Of a DNA stretch of 64,000 bases, positions 20,444 to 63,727 are shown one piece after another. The position numbers and the translations under genes were made by a program. Each line of letters begins with the position of its first letter. Position 1 is the stretch's first letter. The DNA comes from Shigella phage Tf. The stretch lies in sequence record OR980947; one strand, written 5' to 3'. Under the pieces are notes generated by a model. The model did not search any database, was not told the DNA's origin, and saw nothing but the letters and a program-made list of their open reading frames with translations.

Positions 20444-20731
20444 AATGACCTCAAAGTTATATTAAATTTTGTATTACGTTGAGTATAAAAATAAGCTATA
20501 ACACCTGACTTGTCAACAGACTTTATAGCTTATTTGGCAGATTTTTTATAAGGCTACTGCCATCCTTCCATACATTACCATACCTCACCGGACCCTACCC
20601 GACCGGGCCTCACCCTGCCTTGCCAAACATCACTTAAAAATCCTCTTAGAAGACTCTTAAGTGATGCTGGTGAGTACCCGTTGGTTTATGCTGCTCAGTA
20701 TACTCACCAAATTTTCTATGTCAACAACTTT

Positions 20732-28955: not shown

Positions 28956-29156
28956 ATGAAGATGAGAGTAAAAGACAATTTTAAAGTTATTGACCACCGT
29001 TTAGTGGAACTCTCATCTCTTTCCAATGAGGTAATGATTGAACGTCTTAAGAGAGTTGAATCACGAAGGAAAGAGATTGCAGATGAAATTCATGAACTGG
29101 ACAAGATTGAAAATGGATTGAAGGCAGAACTACAACGAAGAGGTGCTAATGTCTAA
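28956..29156 (+). CDS. small coiled-coil protein
   Basis: 66 aa ORF upstream of primase-helicase. Confidence 0.3.
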   Translation: MKMRVKDNFKVIDHRLVELSSLSNEVMIERLKRVESRRKEIADEIHELDKIENGLKAELQRRGANV

Positions 29157-31134
29157 AGGTCGTAAATTGAAAGAGGCTGGTCAGTTTATTGGTCATTGTG
29201 CATGTCCACGTTGTGGTTCATCAGATGCTGGTTCAATCTATCATCATGACGATGATTCTTATTCGATGACTTGCTTTAGCTGTAACAAAGGTTTCCCAGA
29301 GTGGGATTTTGATAAAGGACAAATCGTGAGCACTTATTCTACTGGTTCAGATAACAAAAACCGTACTTTCCGTGGAATGGATTTAGACGATGTAAAAGAA
29401 AACCTTGAAGCAATGGACTTAAAAGACAGGAAAATCCCTGCAAAAGTCCTTGAACGCTTAGGTATCAAGGTTGACATTGACAGTGATGGTGAAATTGACG
29501 CACATTTCTATCCAACTTACAAACGTAATGAAGATGGCAAGCTAGAACATGTTGGCTACCGTGTTCGTCACCGTTACCCAGAAGACCATCCAAAAGAGCA
29601 CCTACGTGGTAAGTTAAAGGACTTTTCTGGTGGTGTTGGAGACATTAAAGGTGAACTGGCAATGTTCGGTTCATGGATTGCTCCAGAAGGTGGTAACCGT
29701 CTATTCATCTGGGAAGGTGAGATGGAATGTGCGACAGCAATCTACATGACTTCTCTGGCAATTAAGGACAAATCTCGTCGTAAGAATTACTGTCACGTAT
29801 CTGTTCCATCAGGTGCAAACATCAAGTCTATCAAAGATAACTATCAGTACATTACATCATTTGATGAGATTTACTTGTGCTTTGATAACGATGAAGCAGG
29901 TGCTAAAGCCACTAAAGAGGCTGCTGGCATTCTCCCTATCGAGAAGGTTCGTTTATTCCAGTATCCAGAGGGTGTGAAAGACCTTAACGAGTGGTGGACA
30001 AAGTTCTATAAAGAGAAAGACACAGTTCTGGAAGGATTTAAGCAGCGTATCTACAACGCACCTCGTTACTGTCCTGCTGGTATCAAGAACTTTGCAGATG
30101 GTTTTGAGGCAATGAAGAATCGTGGTCAGATTCCATTGATTCCTTTCCCAGAATCTTTCGGGGATTTGAACAGACTGACTTATGGTGGTTACGGTTTAGG
30201 TGAGATTACAACTCTGGCAGCACCATCTTCAGTGGGTAAATCTGCATACACTCGTGAAATGATTTACACTGCTTGGAAAGATACCGATTACAATATTGGT
30301 GTAATTCCAGTTGAAGATACCTATGAAGAGTTGATGGAGATGCTCTGTGCAATTCACCTGAGCAAGCAGATTTCTGAGATTCCTTATGACGAACGTGATT
30401 GGGATGAATTGAAGGAAGCACATGCAGAACTGTCTAAAGGTCGTCGTATCCATATCGTTGACCATCAAGGGGCAATTGACCAAGATAACCTGCTGGAATT
30501 TGTTGACTATCTTGTTAACAGTTTAGACTGTAAGATTATCATTCTTGACCCTATCACGTTAGCTCTGTCACGTTCTGATACGGATGAAGAAGAAGTTTTG
30601 TCTGAGCTATTGCGTCGTTGCAAACGCTACCAGTATGCGCAGGTAAACGTATGTCACGTTCGTAAGAGTGCAGGTGGCCAGAAAGCTAACTCTGAAGGTG
30701 GGGATATCTCTGAAGAGGATATCAAGGGTTCTGGTGCGTATTTCCAGATTTCCATGAATAATATTTTGTTAATGCGTAACAAGGTTGACCCAGACCCTGT
30801 TAAGAAAAACTTGACAAAAATCAAGTTAACTAAATGTCGTCGTCACGGTAAGTCAACGGGTATTGCTGGTCATACTTGGTACAATCCAGATACAGGACGT
30901 CTTATCAAAGCTTCTGGATGTGGTGTTGATATTGATGGTGCAGCAGAAAATATCCGTCAACAGTTTGGTATTGGTGAAGCTGAAGACCATTACGATGACT
31001 CTTTGCCACATTATGAGGATGAAGTGTTTGACCGTGAGACTGGTGAAGTCTATACTGAAGAGCAGCGTCAAAGCTCAACGATTCCACCTGTATTAAGTGA
31101 GGATGCAGATGACTGCCCGTTCGAAACTGAGTGA
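29149..31134 (+). CDS. DNA primase-helicase (T7 gp4-like)
   Basis: N-terminal zinc ribbon CPRCGSSD...CFSCN, central primase region, C-terminal helicase Walker A AAPSSVGKSAY and Walker B IIILDP; ATG at 29149 (tracked ORF starts 29143). Confidence 0.8.
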   Translation: MSKGRKLKEAGQFIGHCACPRCGSSDAGSIYHHDDDSYSMTCFSCNKGFPEWDFDKGQIVSTYSTGSDNKNRTFRGMDLDDVKENLEAMDLKDRKIPAKVLERLGIKVDIDSDGEIDAHFYPTYKRNEDGKLEHVGYRVRHRYPEDHPKEHLRGKLKDFSGGVGDIKGELAMFGSWIAPEGGNRLFIWEGEMECATAIYMTSLAIKDKSRRKNYCHVSVPSGANIKSIKDNYQYITSFDEIYLCFDNDEAGAKATKEAAGILPIEKVRLFQYPEGVKDLNEWWTKFYKEKDTVLEGFKQRIYNAPRYCPAGIKNFADGFEAMKNRGQIPLIPFPESFGDLNRLTYGGYGLGEITTLAAPSSVGKSAYTREMIYTAWKDTDYNIGVIPVEDTYEELMEMLCAIHLSKQISEIPYDERDWDELKEAHAELSKGRRIHIVDHQGAIDQDNLLEFVDYLVNSLDCKIIILDPITLALSRSDTDEEEVLSELLRRCKRYQYAQVNVCHVRKSAGGQKANSEGGDISEEDIKGSGAYFQISMNNILLMRNKVDPDPVKKNLTKIKLTKCRRHGKSTGIAGHTWYNPDTGRLIKASGCGVDIDGAAENIRQQFGIGEAEDHYDDSLPHYEDEVFDRETGEVYTEEQRQSSTIPPVLSEDADDCPFETE

Positions 31135-31204
31135 TAGCTATAAAAGGGAGGGGTTCACACCCTTCTTTGAAGAAAAAAGTTTAAATAAATTTCAGGAAGA
31201 GTGT

Positions 31205-31233
31205 TTGACAAAGGTTGATAGGTTCTATAGAAT
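31205..31233 (+). promoter_or_regulatory. sigma70-like promoter (ttgaca-N17-tagaat)
   Basis: gtgtttgaca, 17-nt spacer, tagaat; sits inside a probably spurious tracked ORF. Confidence 0.55.
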
Positions 31234-31386
31234 GCTCTACATGAAATGTGATGGATGCGTTGAGGCAGAAGAAAAGTTCCATCACAGCATAATCACAGTC
31301 ACCATTACTATACCTAAACATAATATTGGTTGGCTCTTTATAATTAAAGAAAATGTGTTTGAATATCAAGTATATCGGAGAATATC

Positions 31387-31536
31387 ATGAAACACTCTAA
31401 AGCATTTGAAAAAGTTTTTGGGGATTCCTTAAAAGCCACTGCTGGTAAACCAGCAAAATACTATGAAGAAAAACGTGTAAGAACTGGAAAAACTGCACGT
31501 AAAGCAGCTTCTAAAGATAAGCACAACTTCCAGTAA
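31387..31536 (+). CDS. small basic protein (49 aa, not in ORF track)
   Basis: ATG preceded by ggaga RBS; MKHSKAFEKVFGDSLKATAGKPAKYYEEKRVRTGKTARKAASKDKHNFQ; flanked by two consensus promoters. Confidence 0.4.
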   Translation: MKHSKAFEKVFGDSLKATAGKPAKYYEEKRVRTGKTARKAASKDKHNFQ

Positions 31537-31543
31537 TTAGTGT

Positions 31544-31572
31544 TTGACAATAGAGTATCAACAAACTAGAAT
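31544..31572 (+). promoter_or_regulatory. sigma70-like promoter (ttgaca-N17-tagaat)
   Basis: gtgtttgaca, 17-nt spacer, tagaat upstream of the SSB-like gene. Confidence 0.55.
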
Positions 31573-31608
31573 TGGTACTCTTCATAAATTGAGATAGAGG
31601 TTTAAATA

Positions 31609-32466
31609 ATGTCTAAAGTTGTTAAAATGAAAGCTCCGGTAGAGAAGTACAACGGTACTGAACGTCAAACTCTGCGTTACCTGCTGAAAGATGTCTGGTT
31701 TTATTACCTGAATACTTCACCACGTCCGGGAAAAGGTAAGTCTATTGATAAGAAATTCCCAGGAAAAGATTGTAACTACAGCGTATCAATTCTGGCAGAA
31801 GACGGTAACAAGCTCTTTAAAGAGTTTACTAAGTCTAAGAAAAATCCAGAAGGCTGGGATAAAGTCACTACTGAAGCAGTTGATGCAGACGACTTTGAAG
31901 AGAAGTTTGGTTGTAAACCACCTTTTGAAGCAGACACTTACTACATCTTGAAAGTAAGTCGTGCAGCAGCTTATAAAGATGGTGCTGTGTGGACAGCTAA
32001 ACAGTCATTCCCTGTAATGCTGATTGAAGAAGTAAATGGTAAGCGTGTAGCTGTTAAGCAGCCGATGAAGAAAATCAAAGCTCAAGCATCTGACAAACAT
32101 GAAGATGATAAGAACTATGATGTAATTCATCCAGATATTGCAGTTGGTAACGGTTCTTTTGGTAGTGTGATTCTTTCTACTCACTTCTACACTTTTGAGA
32201 ACAATGTCTTGACAAAGCCTATTCAGGAACAGTTTATCATTGATACTCTTGTACCTTACACTGGTGGTAACGGTGCTAACGGTGAACCTGAACTGGATGA
32301 AGATGAACTGGCTATGCTTGGTCTTGATGGTGTTGAAGATAACGGTGAAATCACTGAAGAAGATGCAAAAGACCACAAACCTTCGAATGATTCTGATGAT
32401 GGTGACGATGAAGACTTGCCAGACCCAGATGACGAAGGAGATGAAGGCTTCGATACAGAAGACTAA
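31609..32466 (+). CDS. putative single-stranded DNA-binding protein with acidic C-terminal tail
   Basis: Very acidic C-terminus DDGDDEDLPDPDDEGDEGFDTED; position between primase-helicase and exonuclease as in T7-like replication modules. Confidence 0.45.
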   Translation: MSKVVKMKAPVEKYNGTERQTLRYLLKDVWFYYLNTSPRPGKGKSIDKKFPGKDCNYSVSILAEDGNKLFKEFTKSKKNPEGWDKVTTEAVDADDFEEKFGCKPPFEADTYYILKVSRAAAYKDGAVWTAKQSFPVMLIEEVNGKRVAVKQPMKKIKAQASDKHEDDKNYDVIHPDIAVGNGSFGSVILSTHFYTFENNVLTKPIQEQFIIDTLVPYTGGNGANGEPELDEDELAMLGLDGVEDNGEITEEDAKDHKPSNDSDDGDDEDLPDPDDEGDEGFDTED

Positions 32467-32483: not shown

Positions 32484-32513
32484 AAAGCCCTGTACTTAGT
32501 ATGGGGCTTTTTC
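32484..32513 (+). terminator. rho-independent terminator
   Basis: Hairpin agccctgtact...atggggct followed by ttttt. Confidence 0.5.
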
Positions 32514-46685: not shown

Positions 46686-48467
46686 ATGACTAAATCACTT
46701 TATGCAGTACCAGCAGGTTTAAACGCGGACGCTTACAAGGCATCACATATATATCAGTATCCAGATGCTACGCAATACCTTATGTTGAACCTGACACCAC
46801 GTAGTGACAAATGGTTTAACAGCCCTTTGGCAATTGACGGTGTAGTGGCTTTTGGTATTCAACGTTTCGTTAAAGATTACTTGATAGACCACTGGAACGC
46901 CACTTTCTTTGAACGTGATAAAAAAGAAGCAATTGACGAAATCTTAGAAGTCATGAATGGTGTTCTGGGTAAAGATGCTATCGGTCGAGAGCATTGGGAA
47001 GCACTTCACGACTTAGGTTATCTACCAGTTGAAGTATACGCTGTAGAAGAAGGTACAGTTGTTCCTATGCGTGTACCAATGATTGTCTTCCAGAACACTG
47101 TTTCAGGTTTCCATTGGGTAGCGGGATATCTGGAAGATGCTTTCTCTGCTGAGATTTGGAAGGCTTGTACCATTGCAACTATTGCATTGCATTATAAACG
47201 CATCTGTAAGAAGTGGGCTGACCTTACTTGCGACAATGACTTACATTTACCTTATCAGTGTCATGACTTTGCTATGCGTGGTATGTCCGGCTTTACTGAT
47301 GACGCATTTAATGCTGTAGGCCACTTGACCAGCTTTAAAGGAACTGATAGCTTCCCTGCTGTATACACGGCTAAACGCATCTACGGACAGTCTTACCCAG
47401 TCTCTGATATTGGTGGTTCTGTACCAGCCACTGAACACTCTGTAATGTGTGCAAACATTGCTTGGGAAGGTGGTAATGAATTGATTGAAGAGGAAAGACG
47501 CTTTAAAGGTGAGTTACAAACCTTCCGTCGTTTCTTAACAGAAACTTACCCAACTGGTATTGCAAGTGTTGTTTCAGATACTTATAACTTCTGGAGAACT
47601 GTATCAGTCATATTGCCAGAACTCCGTAAAGAGATTATGGAACGTGATGGCAAACTGGTAATTCGTCCTGATTCTGGAGACCCTGTACATATTGTCACAG
47701 GATACAAAGCAATCCATTTAGAGTGTGCTAAAAAGGCTTATTACGAACACCTAAGTAAGCTGGAAGCCAGCGACACAATGCTGAATGCTGTTCTGAACAT
47801 GAAGCTTGAAAACATCAATTATGGCATTGCTGGATGGCTACTGTCAGAAGGCTACGAAATGGTTGTTGACAGAGAAGACTTTGAAGTTGCTGATACAGTG
47901 CTGTTGAAAAATGCTTATATGGTTGGTTCTGCAAACGTTGTAACACGTCCTGTAGCGGAGATTGATGGAGCTATCAAGACACTGTATAACATCTTTGGAG
48001 GAACTATCAACTCTAAAGGTTTTAAAGTACTGGATGAGCATATCGGGCTTATTTATGGTGACTCTATCACGTTGGAACGTGCAAACGAAATACTGAAGCG
48101 TTTGTATGAAATGGGTTTTGCAAGCTCTAACGTAGTATTTGGTGTAGGTTCTTACACTTACCAGTACATGACTCGTGACACTTTTGCATTTGCTGTCAAA
48201 GCAACTCTTGCAAGCATTGGTGGTAAAGAGATTATGCTTGCAAAAGACCCTAAAACAGACAGTGGCGTTAAGAAATCTGCCTTTGGTGGTGTAGCACCTA
48301 TGTGGGATGGTGATAAGCTGAAAGCTGTAGATGGCTATGGATTCCAGAGTTTTGCAGATGTACTTGACCACCCAGCTTGTGCTTTACGTTTAGTCTTTAG
48401 TGACTCTGAGCAGTTCGGTTACACAACTCTTGGTGATATTCGAAATAATATTGACAAGCAGCTTTAA
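46686..48467 (+). CDS. nadV: nicotinamide phosphoribosyltransferase-like protein (NadV/NAMPT family)
   Basis: 593 aa; general NAMPT-like architecture; adjacent to prs-like gene as in other large lytic phages; family assignment by inspection only. Confidence 0.5.
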   Translation: MTKSLYAVPAGLNADAYKASHIYQYPDATQYLMLNLTPRSDKWFNSPLAIDGVVAFGIQRFVKDYLIDHWNATFFERDKKEAIDEILEVMNGVLGKDAIGREHWEALHDLGYLPVEVYAVEEGTVVPMRVPMIVFQNTVSGFHWVAGYLEDAFSAEIWKACTIATIALHYKRICKKWADLTCDNDLHLPYQCHDFAMRGMSGFTDDAFNAVGHLTSFKGTDSFPAVYTAKRIYGQSYPVSDIGGSVPATEHSVMCANIAWEGGNELIEEERRFKGELQTFRRFLTETYPTGIASVVSDTYNFWRTVSVILPELRKEIMERDGKLVIRPDSGDPVHIVTGYKAIHLECAKKAYYEHLSKLEASDTMLNAVLNMKLENINYGIAGWLLSEGYEMVVDREDFEVADTVLLKNAYMVGSANVVTRPVAEIDGAIKTLYNIFGGTINSKGFKVLDEHIGLIYGDSITLERANEILKRLYEMGFASSNVVFGVGSYTYQYMTRDTFAFAVKATLASIGGKEIMLAKDPKTDSGVKKSAFGGVAPMWDGDKLKAVDGYGFQSFADVLDHPACALRLVFSDSEQFGYTTLGDIRNNIDKQL

Positions 48468-48480
48468 AAGTATATGATAA

Positions 48481-48505
48481 GAGGCTCCTACGGGAGCCTT
48501 TTTAA
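48481..48505 (+). terminator. rho-independent terminator
   Basis: gaggctcc tacg ggagcctt followed by ttt. Confidence 0.6.
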
Positions 48506-48520
48506 TTTCTGGAGAAAACT

Positions 48521-49042: not shown

Positions 49043-51409
49043 ATGCGCATGGTAAACGACCACGCAGAAGTGATTAAGAGTTCAACTTCTTTAGAGACGT
49101 CTCAAGCACAGATTACAATGACACCTGAAATGTTCAGCCTTTTGAGTTCTGGTGTATATACCTTTAAAGAAAGGGCAGTGATTCGTGAACTGTCATGTAA
49201 CGCAGTAGATGCTCAGAAAGAAGCTGGAAAAGAGAACATCCCGTTCCATGTGCATTTACCTACTCGTTTTGAGCCTTACTTTGAAGTTCGTGATTTTGGA
49301 ACTGGATTGACTCATGATAAAGTTATGAGTTTGTACCTAAACTACGGGGCTTCTACGAAGAATGACTCTAATGACTACATTGGTGCAATGGGTATCGGCT
49401 CAAAATCACCATTTGCAATCGCTCAGTCATTCACAGTATCTAGCTATGTTGACGGTGTTGTTAATAAGTACTCTGTTTATCTTGAGAATGGTATTCCTCA
49501 AGTAACTAAGCTGACTACCAACCCAACAAAGGAACCTAATGGCTTAGCTGTACGTGTAGCAGTTGCTGACCATCGTATCTCAAAATTCTTTGAAGAGGCT
49601 GGTCAGGTATACTCATACTTTACTGTAAAACCAGAAAGTAATATCGTGTATGATGATGTATTAGCAGACATGAACGTCATTGCCCGTGAAGAAGGTGTTT
49701 ATGATGCCATGATTCATAAGCAAAGCTGGCGTTCTAGTAGTAACAGGACAGGGTTTAATGTGGTGATGGGTAACATTGCCTACCCAGTTAACATGGAAGC
49801 ATTGCTTGGTGATGATTTCTTCGAAGTCTTGCCAGAATTTTTCCGTAGGAGTGTAGACCTTGTAAACATTTACATGCCTATTGGCTCAGTTGCCATTGCA
49901 GCTTCTCGTGAAGCATTACAGATGAATGATACGACAAAAAATGTTATCATCGAGGCTACTAAAAAGATAACTGAAGCAATTACAAAGGATGTTATCAAGA
50001 AAGTTAACAGTCAACCTACACTCATGGATGCTGCACAGGCTTATGCGGAGTTACGTTTGAACTCACGAGAAATGTTTAATGCTGTGTGTCCAAAGCTAGA
50101 GTGGGGAGGTGTTAAGCTTGATTCTCTGGAAGAAGAATTGCTAAACATTCGTCGTGGGATTATCTACGCAGAAGACGGCTCAGTCATTTATGAACGTGAC
50201 GGTAAAGGTAATATTAAGGTTGATAGGAACGGGAACAATATCCCTAAAGTAGATTATCTTTATGACCCAGTTGCTTATGTCAAGTTCAACTCTTTAGAGA
50301 GTAAGATTCGTGCAACAGCACTTTCCTACACTCAAGAGGCAAGTATGTTCAATATCTTTGGTGCAATGCGTAAAAGCCAAATTGAACAGTTTTTGTTTGT
50401 TATAAATGACCGTCGCAATAAAAACGGTACTGAGAAGACTGTAGGCCGCAATCAGATTCTGCGTGGTGCATGTCGAGACTATGCCAGTGAGTCGAGTATG
50501 TTTCACAGATACAATGGTATTGTCTTCGTATTCTCTACTGAGAAAGAGTTAGACGACCTAATCAATCTGCACAAACTTGATAAAAGCTTGTTAAAGATTG
50601 TGAAGATGTCTGATAAGGAACACCACTATCAGCGTAAAGAAGCTGTAAGGGGTGTTGTAAAACTCTGGAAAGCTGTTCCAGCAGAAACCAACGCTTCATA
50701 CAAAGAGGTGTCAGAAGACTTAGACACAATTGAAGAGCCTCAGCTTTATATTAAGGCAGTAGGTGACACAGTTGATGGTAGATGTTTTTGCTCATCTCCA
50801 GAGGATGTAGCTAAGTCAGTTGCTAATGTTACAGGTAAGACAGTCTATGTTTTCCGAAAAGCAAATTGGAAAAAGATACCAGAAGACTGGATTGAAGTAG
50901 ATGAGAAGCTCTTGAACGACAGCTTAACTGATGTTCATTGGATTAACCATAACAGGTATATGACACGCATCTACATGAATGGTATTCTTGACCTTACAAG
51001 TAGCTGGATTATTGCCAGAAACTTCACATTCAATAACAGGAAGATTTCTCGTGGTTATTGCTATTCACGGGATACAAACAAAACTATCTTCCTAGAAGGT
51101 AATGAAGAGGCTGTAGAGGCAATGTTTGGTAAGATTCAGTATGTGGCTGCACCGTTTGCATACACTTACACTGTCAGCGTTCTTCAGGATTTGAAGTCAT
51201 GCCTCGACAATGACACAAAACTGTACAAGAAGATTAAGAAAGCAGGTGACCGCATGGTTATCAAGTTGACAAACTATCTTTCAAAAAGAAAACAAGAAAA
51301 CTTCTTGCTTTCACACTTAGATTGGAATAAAGTTTCACCTATCGAGGTGAGTAAGTTTTTAGGCTTTAATGTGAAATGTGTTCCAGAAGGTACAACAATT
51401 TACGATTAA
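49043..51409 (+). CDS. rIIA: rIIA-like protein with N-terminal GHKL ATPase-like domain
   Basis: HATPase-like motifs ELSCNAVDA, VRDFGTGL, GAMGIGSKS; ~790 aa; followed by rIIB-sized gene. Confidence 0.55.
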   Translation: MRMVNDHAEVIKSSTSLETSQAQITMTPEMFSLLSSGVYTFKERAVIRELSCNAVDAQKEAGKENIPFHVHLPTRFEPYFEVRDFGTGLTHDKVMSLYLNYGASTKNDSNDYIGAMGIGSKSPFAIAQSFTVSSYVDGVVNKYSVYLENGIPQVTKLTTNPTKEPNGLAVRVAVADHRISKFFEEAGQVYSYFTVKPESNIVYDDVLADMNVIAREEGVYDAMIHKQSWRSSSNRTGFNVVMGNIAYPVNMEALLGDDFFEVLPEFFRRSVDLVNIYMPIGSVAIAASREALQMNDTTKNVIIEATKKITEAITKDVIKKVNSQPTLMDAAQAYAELRLNSREMFNAVCPKLEWGGVKLDSLEEELLNIRRGIIYAEDGSVIYERDGKGNIKVDRNGNNIPKVDYLYDPVAYVKFNSLESKIRATALSYTQEASMFNIFGAMRKSQIEQFLFVINDRRNKNGTEKTVGRNQILRGACRDYASESSMFHRYNGIVFVFSTEKELDDLINLHKLDKSLLKIVKMSDKEHHYQRKEAVRGVVKLWKAVPAETNASYKEVSEDLDTIEEPQLYIKAVGDTVDGRCFCSSPEDVAKSVANVTGKTVYVFRKANWKKIPEDWIEVDEKLLNDSLTDVHWINHNRYMTRIYMNGILDLTSSWIIARNFTFNNRKISRGYCYSRDTNKTIFLEGNEEAVEAMFGKIQYVAAPFAYTYTVSVLQDLKSCLDNDTKLYKKIKKAGDRMVIKLTNYLSKRKQENFLLSHLDWNKVSPIEVSKFLGFNVKCVPEGTTIYD

Positions 51410-51414
51410 AGTGT

Positions 51415-51444
51415 TTGACAAGGGGATTTGAAGCCCCTTAGAAT
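51415..51444 (+). promoter_or_regulatory. sigma70-like promoter (gtgtttgaca-N18-tagaat)
   Basis: Third copy of gtgtttgaca -35 context with tagaat -10; spacer contains hairpin gggg...cccc. Confidence 0.45.
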
Positions 51445-51488: not shown

Positions 51489-52595
51489 ATGACTACTAAA
51501 ACTAAAGCACAGATTGACGCAGAAATTTACGAACTGGTTAAAGAAGGTAAGCTGACTAAAACAGCTATCGCACAGAAGTTCAATACTTCAACCCGTTCAG
51601 TTGGTCGTGCTGTAGAGCGTCATGAAGCAACCTTAAAAGGTAAGAAAAAGGTAGTTTCTAAACCAGCTACGAAGACTTTGAAGCAAGTTGCTAAGACTCT
51701 TAAAAAGAAAGCTGACAAGCCAGTTAAAAAGGCTGTTAAAGAGTCTGTACAGAAAGCTCCGGTAAATAAACTGCATGAAGCTATGCAGAATGGCGACCAG
51801 ATTGAGTACATGATTACTGGTGACTCTGTTATCATGACTTTCGGTGCAGATTCTGAAATTGTTGAATCTACCCATCCGAACTACAAAGAAATCGTGATGG
51901 CTGTTGTATCCGGTGAGTATAAGAAAGCTTTCGAACTGATGAACATTCGTAAGTCTATCGAAAACTTCACTCAGGGTACTATCACCATCAAAGGTGACAA
52001 GTTATTCTACGGTGCTGTTGAGATGCGTTCTACTCTGGTTGACCGTATTCTTCATATGATGAAGACTGGTGATAAAGGTTTCAAACGCCTTGTAATGTTC
52101 TTCGAAAAACTGATGGAAAACCCATCTAAAGGTTCTGTAGAACAACTGTGGGGATTCATATCTCACCTTGATGTTGAAATTGATGAAGAAGGTTACATTA
52201 TCGGTTGGAAAAAGGTACAAAGTAAAGCTGACGGTTCTCTGGTAGACAGTCACACTCATAAAGTACCTAATGACTTGGGTAACCTAGTTGAGATGCCTCG
52301 TTGGATGGTTGATAGTGACCCTAACCGCACTTGCTCTCAGGGTTTACATGTTGGTGCATGGGAATACGTATCATGTTTTGGAGGTGATACCATCCTGAAA
52401 GTTCGTGTCCATCCACGAGATGTTGTATCTGTCCCGATTGATTACAACGATATGAAGATGCGTGTATCAGCTTATGAGTCTTTTGCGATTGTTGACAGCA
52501 ACCGTAGAGTTATCAAGACTCACTCTGGCTCTGGTGGGTATCGTGTGGTGATTGGTTCTCGCGGTGAGTTAATCTCCAAGACAGCACGCGTTTAA
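51489..52595 (+). CDS. rIIB: rIIB-like protein (tentative)
   Basis: Synteny directly downstream of rIIA-like gene; 368 aa. Confidence 0.4.
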   Translation: MTTKTKAQIDAEIYELVKEGKLTKTAIAQKFNTSTRSVGRAVERHEATLKGKKKVVSKPATKTLKQVAKTLKKKADKPVKKAVKESVQKAPVNKLHEAMQNGDQIEYMITGDSVIMTFGADSEIVESTHPNYKEIVMAVVSGEYKKAFELMNIRKSIENFTQGTITIKGDKLFYGAVEMRSTLVDRILHMMKTGDKGFKRLVMFFEKLMENPSKGSVEQLWGFISHLDVEIDEEGYIIGWKKVQSKADGSLVDSHTHKVPNDLGNLVEMPRWMVDSDPNRTCSQGLHVGAWEYVSCFGGDTILKVRVHPRDVVSVPIDYNDMKMRVSAYESFAIVDSNRRVIKTHSGSGGYRVVIGSRGELISKTARV

Positions 52596-61472: not shown

Positions 61473-61560
61473 TAAAGTACTTTACAAGGGGCTTATAGTT
61501 CGATAAAGTAAGCCCCAGATAAAGAGCTTTACCACTAAATCCTAAATTGGAGAACTTAAA
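61472..61560 (+). repeat. intergenic repeat cassette type A (hairpin + promoter/RBS leader), copy 1
   Basis: aaagtactttacaaggggcttatagttcgataaagtaagccccagataaagagctttaccactaaatcctaaattggagaac; near-identical at 63129 and 63926, variant at 61816. Confidence 0.6.
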
Positions 61561-61819: not shown

Positions 61820-61908
61820 TAAAGTACTTTACAGGGGGCTTAAAAGCTGATATCTTAAGCCCCAGATAAAGAGCTTTACTAACTAACCTTAAACTAGGAG
61901 ATTCAAAA
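61816..61908 (+). repeat. intergenic repeat cassette type A (variant), copy 2
   Basis: ctgataaagtactttacagggggcttaaaagctgatatcttaagccccagataaagagctttac followed by shared leader ccttaaactaggagattcaaaaATG. Confidence 0.55.
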
Positions 61909-62437: not shown

Positions 62438-62770
62438 ATGTTAATGATGGGTATCACTGCAATCATTGCCATTGTAGCACTTTATAAGGCATATAAAGCC
62501 TATAATCTGGCAAGTAAGGCAATCACACAACAGGTTAGCAATAGCCTTGTAGAGAGCTTTCTGGAGCGTTTAAGCAATGAGCAATTAAAACGGTTAGAAA
62601 TGAGCTTCAGATTCCAATCAAAAACTTATCAAATCAGCGACATTTTTAAAGAGGATTTTCAGCTTGTCGATGATTATAATTCACTGATAAATGCTTTAAA
62701 TGTCAGTGACTTAAAAGACTACTACGCTGTAATTGTTCAAGAACTGAGCAAACGAAAACAAAATGCTTGA
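62438..62770 (+). CDS. small early protein with N-terminal TM helix (110 aa)
   Basis: Hydrophobic N-terminus MLMMGITAIIAIVALY; stop overlaps next promoter. Confidence 0.35.
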   Translation: MLMMGITAIIAIVALYKAYKAYNLASKAITQQVSNSLVESFLERLSNEQLKRLEMSFRFQSKTYQISDIFKEDFQLVDDYNSLINALNVSDLKDYYAVIVQELSKRKQNA

Positions 62771-62859
62771 CACTGGTTTTTAGATAGATTAAATTACACA
62801 TCAACGGGGAGGGAATGGCCTTCCCACTAAATAAAGTCCTTAAACTAGGAGGTTCTAAA
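62758..62859 (+). repeat. promoter cassette type B, copy 2 (ttgaca-N17-taaatt + leader hairpin)
   Basis: cttgacactggtttttagatagattaaattacacatcaacggggagggaatggccttccc; near-identical to 63624..63727; related to 60981..61077. Confidence 0.6.
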
Positions 62860-63132: not shown

Positions 63133-63218
63133 AGTACTTTACAAGGGGCTTATAGTTCGATAAAGTAAGCCCCAGATAAAGAGCTTTACCACTAAATCCT
63201 AAATTGGAGAACTTGAAA
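63129..63218 (+). repeat. intergenic repeat cassette type A, copy 3
   Basis: Near-identical to 61472..61560 including hairpin ggggcttatagttcgataaagtaagcccc. Confidence 0.6.
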
Positions 63219-63623: not shown

Positions 63624-63727
63624 AAAATTTTCTTGACACTGGTTTTTAGATAGATTAAATTACACATCAACGGGGAGGAAATGACTTCCCCACTAAATAA
63701 AAACCCTTAAACTAGGAGATTCAAAAA
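63624..63727 (+). repeat. promoter cassette type B, copy 3
   Basis: tcttgacactggtttttagatagattaaattacacatcaacggggaggaaatgacttcccc then shared RBS leader. Confidence 0.6.

Follow-up and report, generated by a model that had tools for sequence, protein, structure and literature searches.

Introduction

Elements that combine a strong σ70 promoter with a stem-loop containing G-T pairs, located mostly between the −35 and −10 hexamers or over the −10, are known from the T4-like phages RB49/phi1, T4/PST, and KVP40/nt-1 as promoter-early stem-loops (PeSLs; Arbiol et al., 2010, PMC2839356; Comeau et al., 2014, PMC4122927). In lacZ fusions, the stem-loops terminated or attenuated transcription and the promoters were active, and PeSLs were proposed to mediate modular shuffling (PMC2839356; PMC4122927). 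Here we describe PeSL-like promoter/stem-loop cassettes in a stretch of 64,000 nt from Shigella phage Tf (sequence record OR980947; this whole stretch is referred to as the window), with emphasis on the junction between the gene of a DNA primase/helicase and that of a probable single-stranded DNA-binding protein (SSB), around positions 31,135–31,608. PeSL-type cassettes were previously described only in T4-like phages; no description of them in Felix O1-like phages was found in a limited literature library, which is not proof of novelty.

The 1.2 kb around the locus was 97% identical to Escherichia phage wV8 and matched 257 phage records, nearly all of them Felix O1-like; judged by these matches, the source genome is a Felixounavirus (Ounavirinae), a Felix O1-like virulent phage. 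No copies of the region were present in 5,426 complete E. coli genomes, indicating that it is not prophage-borne. Felix O1-like phages are widely used in the typing and biocontrol of Salmonella and E. coli. To our knowledge, next to nothing of their transcription programme has been mapped. In the 2010 genome paper on Felix O1, temporal control and the passage of terminators are described as not understood, and no phage-encoded RNA polymerase is known from this family (PMC3185647).

The annotated gene order in wV8, Felix O1, and others is DNA primase/helicase, a 93-aa hypothetical protein (encoded by ORF93), a 49-aa hypothetical protein (ORF49), a 285-aa hypothetical protein (the SSB candidate), a terminator, and an exonuclease. 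The order of primase, ~93-aa ORF, 45–49-aa ORF, and ~285-aa gene was kept in Felixounavirus, Suspvirus, Mooglevirus, Yersinia phage P778, and Pectobacterium phage Wc4-1. The model that we favour, with a probability of about 0.65, is that this primase–SSB junction comprises two small linked genes and host-type promoters, with a composite promoter/stem-loop cassette (P2) ahead of the SSB gene and an internal promoter (P1) within ORF93.

Promoter candidates of the locus

Three near-consensus promoter sites were located in the window:

31201..31233, + strand: P1, GTGTTTGACA-N17-TAGAAT, with the −35 at 31205–31210 and the −10 at 31228–31233; within ORF93 codons 31–42; predicted start at ~31239–31241
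31540..31572, + strand: P2, GTGTTTGACA-N17-TAGAAT, with the −35 at 31544–31549 and the −10 at 31567–31572; in the gap between ORF49 and the SSB gene; predicted start at ~31577–31580
51411..51444, + strand: P3, GTGTTTGACA-N18-TAGAAT; between rIIA (49043..51409) and rIIB (51489..52595)

Exact matches to GTGTTTGACA-N17-TAGAAT occurred at 31201–31233 and 31540–31572, and when up to two mismatches were allowed there were 2 matches against 0.09 expected, a number reached in none of 100 shuffles. The two σ70-like sites proposed in the first-pass annotation, with −35 hexamers at 31205 and 31544, an N17 spacer, and TAGAAT, were thereby recovered exactly. The third copy that it placed at 51415 was found to be a real site at 51411–51444, with a spacer of 18 nt rather than 17. 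A search of both strands of the window for TTGACA-N15-19-TANAAT returned P1, P2, and P3 only (3 vs. 0.61 expected; 0/100 shuffles reached 3). Each of them combines TTGACA with TAGAAT, an 11/12 match to the consensus, and in a separate consensus scan they were among six such 11/12 sites. The spacer of P1 and P2 was 17 nt in all sequences examined, and that of P3 was 18 nt in Felixounavirus and 17 nt at the Suspvirus/Mooglevirus loci. P2 and P3 are both intergenic, 37 and 45 nt ahead of an ATG, respectively; P1 lies inside ORF93, 154 nt ahead of ORF49. Relatives carried RTRT where the window has the GTGT prefix, so that the exact 10-mer identity of the sites is partly haplotype luck. Matches and conservation were observed directly; promoter activity and start sites are predicted from them.

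Twelve distinct sequences representing six lineages were aligned at P2: three variants from Felixounavirus, SUSP1, one sequence each from Yersinia P778 and Pectobacterium Wc4-1, and two each from Mooglevirus, Erwinia-phage-like contigs, and unplaced contigs. Bases common to all of them were TTG of the −35, a single A just past that hexamer, and T/A/T of the −10, and the spacer was 17 nt throughout. In this alignment, the pattern of invariant bases is that expected of σ70 contacts (T-12, A-11, and T-7 of the −10). P2 occupies the sole true intergenic gap of the locus and is annotated as a promoter in GenBank record MZ726791. It is very probably a σ70-type promoter, and the best supported of the sites. 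The promoter table of UAB_Phi87 lists P3 as a predicted promoter (TTGACA / CCTTAGAAT), and P1 and P2 are not included in it; the wV8 paper lists no promoters.

P1 is probably an internal promoter that lies within sequence coding for the conserved N-terminal part of ORF93, a conclusion that we hold at somewhat better than even odds. All 23 distinct Felixounavirus sequences, three of which have a broken ORF93, shared the same two hexamers, and in Suspvirus and Mooglevirus sequences and two unplaced contigs the site read TTGAC(T/G)-N17-TAAAGT. Conservation of the contact bases, which is confounded by coding, held within all of these groups (Felixounavirus, Suspvirus, Mooglevirus, and the two unplaced contigs). 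Leu33 was encoded by TTG in 26/26 sequences, although TTG accounts for 17% of the Leu codons in the phage. The first T of the −10 was retained while its codon varied among Tyr, Cys, Gly, and Ala, and Leu43, just downstream of P1, retained the rare codon CTC.

The best surviving alternative holds that only P2 (and P3) are promoters and that P1, like the upstream site P0 described below, is a silent or irrelevant by-product of the ...EECLTK...FYRML codons, ORF49 being expressed from the primase operon through coupling to ORF93. We consider this possible but doubtful. It retains weight because P1 was absent in Yersinia P778 and Pectobacterium Wc4-1, the most distant relatives still having the ORF, which keep both small ORFs, and because no stem-loop overlaps P1 (fold z = +0.86; only SL1 lies upstream), unlike P2 and P3. 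P1 also falls wholly within a conserved protein segment, so that its conservation is confounded with protein constraint; the changes in Suspvirus and Mooglevirus are at third codon positions, and the ATGA overlap of ORF93 and ORF49 provides another route to ORF49 expression. Nor is a single consensus-like site in 60 kb of coding DNA improbable by itself. What argues for a functional P1 is the 11/12 consensus match with an optimal 17-nt spacer, a kind of site that occurs just three times in the window, together with the constancy of the minority TTG codon, of the first −10 base through four different amino acids, and of the rare CTC codon, and the intact P1 of the sequences in which ORF93 is broken. 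Near-consensus sites of the P1 type are generally used by E. coli RNA polymerase, which also counts against a silent P1. As regards the earlier picture of twin promoters flanking a real small gene, P2 is very probably and P1 plausibly a promoter and ORF49 is genuine, but P1 is embedded in ORF93.

Two further elements lie upstream of P1:

31028..31056, + strand: P0, promoter-like sequence TTGACC-N17-TATACT; in the primase 3′ end, 47 nt ahead of the ORF93 ATG
31145..31168, + strand: SL1, a 10-bp stem-loop with 3 G.U pairs; 11 nt past the primase stop, in ORF93 codons 13–20

SL1 folded in Felixounavirus, Suspvirus, and Mooglevirus representatives and in two unplaced contigs (z −1.1 to −3.5), its closing pair alternating between C-G and T-A across lineages. 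Its maintenance involves very rare codons: Gly is encoded by GGG (6% of Gly codons) in 19/26 sequences, and Pro by CCC (2% of Pro codons) in 25/26. SL1 ends 36 nt short of the P1 −35, and an A/T-rich tract lies between the two; the stretch that encodes the conserved N-terminal part of ORF93 thereby also carries a terminator-like hairpin, an A/T tract, and a consensus promoter. SL1 is a candidate terminator or attenuator for primase transcripts. P0 is the ‘P102’ that the Felix O1 genome paper lists in place of P2 (Felix O1 67839–67867, PMC3185647), which was mapped exactly via aligned sequence L008. Its −10 had decayed to TACACA in three of four Mooglevirus-type sequences, and the fourth (L035) had TTGACA-N17-TACACT. 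The function of P0 is uncertain, the site being coding sequence. A hairpin in the P1 leader (TGTGATGGA...TCCATCACA, 31247–31286) was dropped as a candidate, being unconserved and located in a hypervariable island.

The octamer GTGTTTGA had 6 copies in the window vs. 4.5 expected, i.e., no overall excess, and four of the six fell within 31024–31547 (524 nt, + strand), at 31024, 31201, 31355, and 31540 with a spacing of 154–185 nt. All four clustered copies had a −10-like hexamer 17–18 nt past the −35. Those at 31024 and 31355, which encode Val-Phe-Asp/Glu, may be coding coincidences.

Stem-loop SL2 and the composite cassettes at P2 and P3

The gap that holds P2 also contains an inverted repeat:

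31552..31581, + strand: SL2, a 10-bp stem-loop in which AGAGTATCAA (31552–31561) pairs with TTGGTACTCT (31572–31581)

SL2 has its left arm within the P2 spacer and its right arm at the predicted start site, and its loop contains the −10. A hairpin of this type was present in 12/12 P2 sequences, with 9–11 bp and −9.6 to −15.2 kcal/mol. The pairing at fixed positions of the left arm alternated among A-T, G-C, T-A, C-G, and G.U, with compensatory switches at at least six stem positions. When the −10 was held fixed and the rest shuffled in the six lineages, p was 0.001–0.02 per lineage; the Fisher combined p of 2e-10 overstates the case, since the lineages are related.

The count of covarying positions rests on per-sequence folds, and neither RNAalifold nor covariance models reproduced the hairpin alignment. 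RNAalifold predicted 0 pairs on an ungapped alignment of the 12 P2 regions anchored at the −35 and −10, because the hairpin register shifts by 1–3 nt between lineages. A covariance model built from five sequences in the same register (SUSP1, L031, L032, L034, and L035) found the hairpins of Felixounavirus (E = 1e-3 to 1e-2) and, only just, that of Wc4-1; the Yersinia and Erwinia P2 hairpins were not recovered, and the alignments were contaminated by chance hits. A match of 31551–31662, over SL2 and the start of the SSB gene, to the S15 leader in Rfam was set aside as chance (17.2 bits vs. a gathering threshold of 39.5, E = 0.23).

P3 resembles P2 in having a stem-loop of its own, at 51420–51439, which fills the spacer (GGGGC-loop-GCCCC). 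The stem was conserved and the loop variable at the Felixounavirus, Suspvirus, and Mooglevirus loci and in further unplaced contigs; a more distant relative had a different hairpin at this locus, over the −10. On the combined evidence of promoter and stem conservation in these alignments, P2 and P3 are conserved composite promoter/stem-loop cassettes.

As to what the stem-loops do, a rho-independent terminator has a G+C-rich stem directly before a U-tract, and neither SL2 nor the P3 stem is built in this way. The Felixounavirus SL2 has an A/U-rich stem and is followed by UCAUAAAUU, with no U-tract, and the P3 stem is G/C-rich and followed by UAGAAUAA, likewise with no U-tract; a simple terminator scan flagged neither of them. 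Among the SL2 homologues, only the tails of Yersinia (UUCUUUAAG) and Erwinia L037 (UCUUUUAAG) were U-rich; that of Erwinia L038 was UCGUUUGAG. Efficient intrinsic termination at SL2 is doubtful for lack of the U-tract, and since the P2 and P3 hairpins have no proper U-tract here, the role proposed for them is better described as that of an attenuator or 3′-end stabiliser than as that of an efficient terminator.

The inverted repeat could also be a DNA operator through which a dimeric phage or host regulator controls the SSB promoter, rather than an RNA stem-loop. Its arms flank the −10 and the start site, a classic repressor position, symmetric changes in half-sites could reflect co-evolution with a protein, and the palindrome of Felix O1 is perfectly Watson–Crick and stabler on the − strand. 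However, in 11/12 sequences the + strand fold was the stabler one, because of the many G.T pairs, which form on this strand only; this bias favours a sense-RNA structure over a protein operator. Arm sequence, arm length (9–11 bp), loop length (5–11 nt), and register to the −10 varied between lineages, P3 and the 57-bp cassettes described below carry unrelated stems, and the operator motif GAGTA-N-TACTC was not enriched in the genome (3 vs. 2 expected). We regard the operator as quite unlikely and read SL2 as a probable RNA structure.

Two small linked genes between the primase and probable SSB genes

The genes and features of this part of the locus were as follows:

29149..31134, + strand: DNA primase/helicase gene (homologue of Felix O1 ORF101), annotated in wV8, Felix O1, and others; shares its final 26 nt with ORF93
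31109..31390, + strand: ORF93, i.e., Felix O1 ORF102 (FelixO1p246), wV8 gp110, phrog_4982; 93 aa from the ATG at 31109 in public records
31239..31350, + strand: hypervariable island, ORF93 codons 45–81; also the leader of any P1 transcript
31377..31381, + strand: Shine–Dalgarno sequence GGAGA of ORF49, 5 nt ahead of its ATG
31387..31536, + strand: ORF49, i.e., Felix O1 ORF103/FelixO1p245, wV8 gp111, phrog_4424; 49 aa, basic

The small basic 49-aa ORF at 31387..31536, with its GGAGA ribosome-binding site at 31377–31381, was present as the first-pass annotation had described it. It had been called unannotated, which is true of the ORF track used there only: ORF49 is already known and has been annotated since 2010. 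It was 100% identical to the Felix O1 copy, which the 2010 supplement lists as ORF103, “49 aa, pI 10.2”, and matched phrog_4424 at E = 7e-36. By tblastn it occurred in 262 phage records, 170 of them at ≥99% identity, and it is annotated in >200 genomes; homologues were confined to Ounavirinae-type phages (16 clusters). Its dN/dS was 0.08–0.2 between genera, changes within the genus were all synonymous, and variable sites were concentrated at third codon positions. The sequence ATCGGAG (31374–31380) around the Shine–Dalgarno was kept in Felixounavirus, Suspvirus, and Mooglevirus sequences and two unplaced contigs. ORF49 had no match in Pfam or NCBIfam; its predicted structure consisted of three short helices (pLDDT 69), and a fold search with this model gave matches in BFVD only to its own family, none of them informative. 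By these coding signatures, ORF49 is a genuine gene under strong purifying selection and encodes a very conserved, small, basic early-region protein.

The longer ORF over P1 had been given as 97 aa (31097..31390, GTG start). Its overlap with the primase 3′ end and P1 was confirmed, but its dismissal as probably not real was not supported: it is the annotated ORF102/phrog_4982, open in 26/29 sequences and with coding-type dN/dS. ORF93 matched phrog_4982 at E = 6e-49 and was 80–96% identical within the genus. Its ATG is preceded by GAGG and falls within the 26-nt overlap with the primase gene, and its TGA overlaps the ATG of ORF49 (ATGA). An ORF of 92–104 codons occupied this position in Felixounavirus, Suspvirus, Mooglevirus, Yersinia phage P778, and Pectobacterium phage Wc4-1, the Suspvirus/Mooglevirus homologues having only ~40% aa identity to the window protein. 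The 29 sequences came from three genera and two unplaced contigs, and the other frames had 4–7 and 9–13 stops. Within the genus, dN/dS was 0.28–0.41. Between genera, the conserved N-terminal half gave 0.21–0.48 in 5/6 comparisons vs. 0.4–1.5 off-frame; in the sixth pair (L029 vs. L031) the in-frame omega was 1.46. The third-position bias was modest (p = 0.04), and ORF93 had no relatives in Pfam, NCBIfam, or PDB. The frame was interrupted in 3/23 distinct Felixounavirus sequences (IMG/VR contigs L018, L022, and L023) by a 1-nt deletion in an A-run, by GAG to TAG at codon 52, and by GAA to TAA at codon 81 (BPS17W1); P1 and ORF49 were intact in all three. Either ORF93 is dispensable or these lesions are sequencing errors. 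Taking the coding signatures together, ORF93 is probably a real gene.

The C-terminal half of ORF93 was hypervariable. In the island, divergence among Felixounavirus genomes was 11–46% (7–46% by 56-nt bin), and in the flanks 0–5%; the island starts 6 nt past the P1 −10. Omega in the ORF93 frame was 0.15–0.35 there, below both off-frames in 7/7 comparisons, and this low in-frame omega indicates old allelic diversity of a coding segment rather than decay. The pattern suggests that old alleles have been exchanged between boundaries of conserved regulatory sequence.

Because both ORFs look real, the locus is better read as two small conserved genes than as an intergenic spacer with an orphan ORF, and P1 sits within a gene. 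The opposite view taken in the first-pass annotation, that 31135–31608 is a regulatory spacer in which the ORF over P1 is an artefact and a novel 49-aa ORF is bracketed by twin promoters, is improbable: SL1, the A/T-rich tract, and P1 right after the primase stop do resemble an intergenic terminator/promoter cassette, and the broken copies, weak third-position bias, and missing database relatives of ORF93 fit it, but the ORF stays open at 92–93 codons in three genera despite ~40% aa identity while other frames have 4–13 stops, the island omega is lowest in its frame in every comparison, it has a Shine–Dalgarno sequence, an ATG, and the ATGA junction with ORF49, and both ORFs, which have PHROG families, have been on record as genes since Felix O1 was re-annotated.

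Two variants of the locus were seen among the relatives. Escherichia phage SP22 (L002, LC519489; 1220–1410) had a tandem duplication of ~94 bp spanning the primase 3′ end and the ORF93 start, so that ORF93 and the primase gene no longer overlap there. Its record carries implausible product names, ‘DCMP deaminase’ for the 49-aa ORF and ‘recombination endonuclease subunit’ for the primase. In L037 and L038 (IMG/VR, ~84.6 kb, distant Erwinia-phage-like relatives; 1340–1450), both small ORFs were missing: the primase stop was directly followed by a P2-like cassette, TTGCAA-N17-TAAGAT with a GGTGGGTA...TACTCACC stem, and then by an SSB-like gene. Relative to these contigs, ORF93–ORF49 represents an insertion or deletion.

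A probable SSB encoded behind P2

Downstream of P2 the following features were located:

31609..32466, + strand: 285-aa gene, i.e., Felix O1 ORF104, phrog_3877; probable T7 gp2.5-type ssDNA-binding protein with an acidic C-terminal tail
32487..32512, + strand: intrinsic terminator t104, GCCC...GGGGC followed by TTTTT (PMC3185647, Table 2; annotated in wV8)

The 285-aa protein was 89–94% identical to Suspvirus/Mooglevirus representatives and 44% identical to the homologue of P778, which is labelled ‘methyltransferase’ in the record of that phage (PP693300). It had no match in Pfam or NCBIfam, and a sequence profile search of PDB gave nothing useful. Its AlphaFold model was mostly beta (pLDDT 67; core 75–85) with a disordered acidic tail. 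The nine best Foldseek matches in PDB were all gp2.5-type SSBs or their relatives, namely DUF2815 (4klk and 4jg2), the Enc34 SSB (5odj/5odk/5odl), and T7 gp2.5 (1je5), with probabilities of 0.82–1.0 and E values of 4e-4 to 7e-2; TM-scores were low (0.38–0.56 on target). The C-terminal tail ends in ...DDGDDEDLPDPDDEGDEGFDTED, in which the F and flanking acidic residues were conserved.

Based on this fold similarity, the protein is probably the unannotated SSB of Felix O1-like phages, with a gp2.5-type OB fold. Like the T7 gp2.5-type SSBs, it has a mostly beta core and an acidic, disordered C-terminal tail with a Phe near the end, and its gene adjoins a T7-like primase/helicase. Unlike them, it has no match at the sequence level and is ~100 residues longer than the matched chains (166–185). 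As t104 follows the gene behind P2, the promoter, the SSB gene, and the terminator form a compact unit beside the T7-like primase/helicase.

Further promoter/stem-loop cassettes in the window

A survey of intergenic gaps revealed further cassettes. One of ~57 bp was present in three copies (61481–61540, 61828–61890, and 63138–63200), each in a gap ahead of a small ORF. The promoter-like part is TTTACA-N17-TAAAGT (TATCTT in the 61828 copy), and a 9-bp stem (GGGGCTTA...TAAGCCCC) encloses the −10. The Felix O1 paper gives them only as direct repeats (PMC3185647); by their layout they look like PeSL-type promoter/stem-loop cassettes of the small-ORF region. The 39-bp repeats of the same paper correspond to two copies of TTGACActggtttttagatagatTAAATT, at 62767–62795 and 63633–63661, 20 and 67 nt ahead of small ORFs, and no hairpin overlapped either copy.

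At 48451–48510, the consensus-like TTGACA-N16-TATGAT overlaps the end of the upstream gene, and a strong canonical terminator (AAGAGGCTCC-TACG-GGAGCCTTTTT; −16.7 kcal/mol, z = −3.5) comes no more than 4 nt after it; the start of this promoter, which was predicted in UAB_Phi87 (30,949), would fall in the left arm of the terminator. On the minus strand at 20697–20724, TTGACA-N16-TATACT lies in a 288-nt gap, and a hairpin (GGTGAGTAT...GTACTCACC, 20660–20710) begins in its −10. The stem of this hairpin resembles that of the Erwinia/Yersinia P2 (GGTGGGTA...TACTCACC).

Proposed model

In the model that we favour, the host polymerase would read the σ70-type promoters of the locus. P2 would start a compact unit consisting of the promoter, a 30-nt leader, the gp2.5-like SSB gene, and terminator t104. 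The left arm of SL2 precedes the P2 start site, so SL2 could form only in RNA arriving from upstream; RNAs started at P2, having no left arm, would escape it. SL2 would most likely attenuate, terminate, or 3′-stabilise the primase/ORF93/ORF49 transcripts. P1, which SL1 precedes, may produce a separate ORF49 transcript running from ~31240 up to the P2 stem-loop, and ORF93 and ORF49 may be linked translationally through the ATGA overlap. P3 at rIIA/rIIB would follow the same design, with the hairpin placed within the spacer.

In addition to the points raised above on the coding context and absences of P1, on the missing U-tract and the alignment of SL2, and on the coding statistics and interruptions of ORF93, it weighs against this model that no transcription start or 3′-end data for Felix O1-like phages were found in the searchable literature. 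A reverse transcription PCR (RT-PCR) survey of Felix O1 showed transcription of ORF101, ORF104, and ORF105 (PMC3185647), and its entries for ORF102 and ORF103 are NT, which we read as not tested.

A wider reading is that Ounavirinae carry their own family of PeSL-type cassettes, in which SL1 and P1 have been overprinted by a gene and are held by rare codons, the island, whose first base coincides with the predicted P1 start, reflects cassette-bounded allelic exchange, and ORF93–ORF49 is a cassette-delimited insertion. We offer it tentatively and as the less probable extension. No cassette-mediated deletion or mini-circle was seen, and no genome was found in which ORF49 had been excised between P1 and P2.

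No major concept is altered by these findings, and what is new is limited to the recognition, in Felix O1-like phages, of a PeSL-like design and of a likely gp2.5-type SSB. The analysis supplies exact coordinates for three strong host-type promoter candidates, two of them as conserved promoter/stem-loop composites, clarifies that both small ORFs look like real genes, and suggests the missing SSB of the family.

Comparison with known systems

The three promoter candidates resemble classical phage early promoters (T4 early, T5, T7 A1–A3, and lambda PL/PR) in their 11/12 match to TTGACA-N17-TATAAT and A/T-rich upstream sequence, and in the presumed use of host RNA polymerase by a phage not known to encode a polymerase of its own.

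The differences from the PeSLs of T4-like phages are several. Here the cassettes are hosted by Ounavirinae. P1, P2, and P3 share ~16 nt (16 specified bases) instead of ~100 nt, and they lie in the conserved replication and rII modules and not in hyperplastic regions; P1 and SL1, moreover, are located within a protein-coding gene. P2 and P3 have the structural features of PeSLs and do not belong to a long repeated family flanking ORFans, but the 57-bp and 39-bp cassettes at 61.4–63.7 kb fit that description.

The likeness lies in the order and build of the parts. As in PeSLs, an upstream stop codon is followed by an A/T-rich tract, a near-consensus σ70 promoter with an N17 spacer, a Shine–Dalgarno sequence, and an ATG, and the stem-loops often have G-runs and C-runs and G-T pairs. 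The positions of PeSL stem-loops are matched one by one: between the −35 and −10 at P3, over the −10 at P2 and in the 57-bp cassettes, and upstream of the −35 for SL1 before P1. The proposed role is also alike, in that upstream transcription would be ended or attenuated while a new transcript starts. If the cassettes act like the PeSLs of T4, this regulatory and recombination design would be common to unrelated myovirus lineages.

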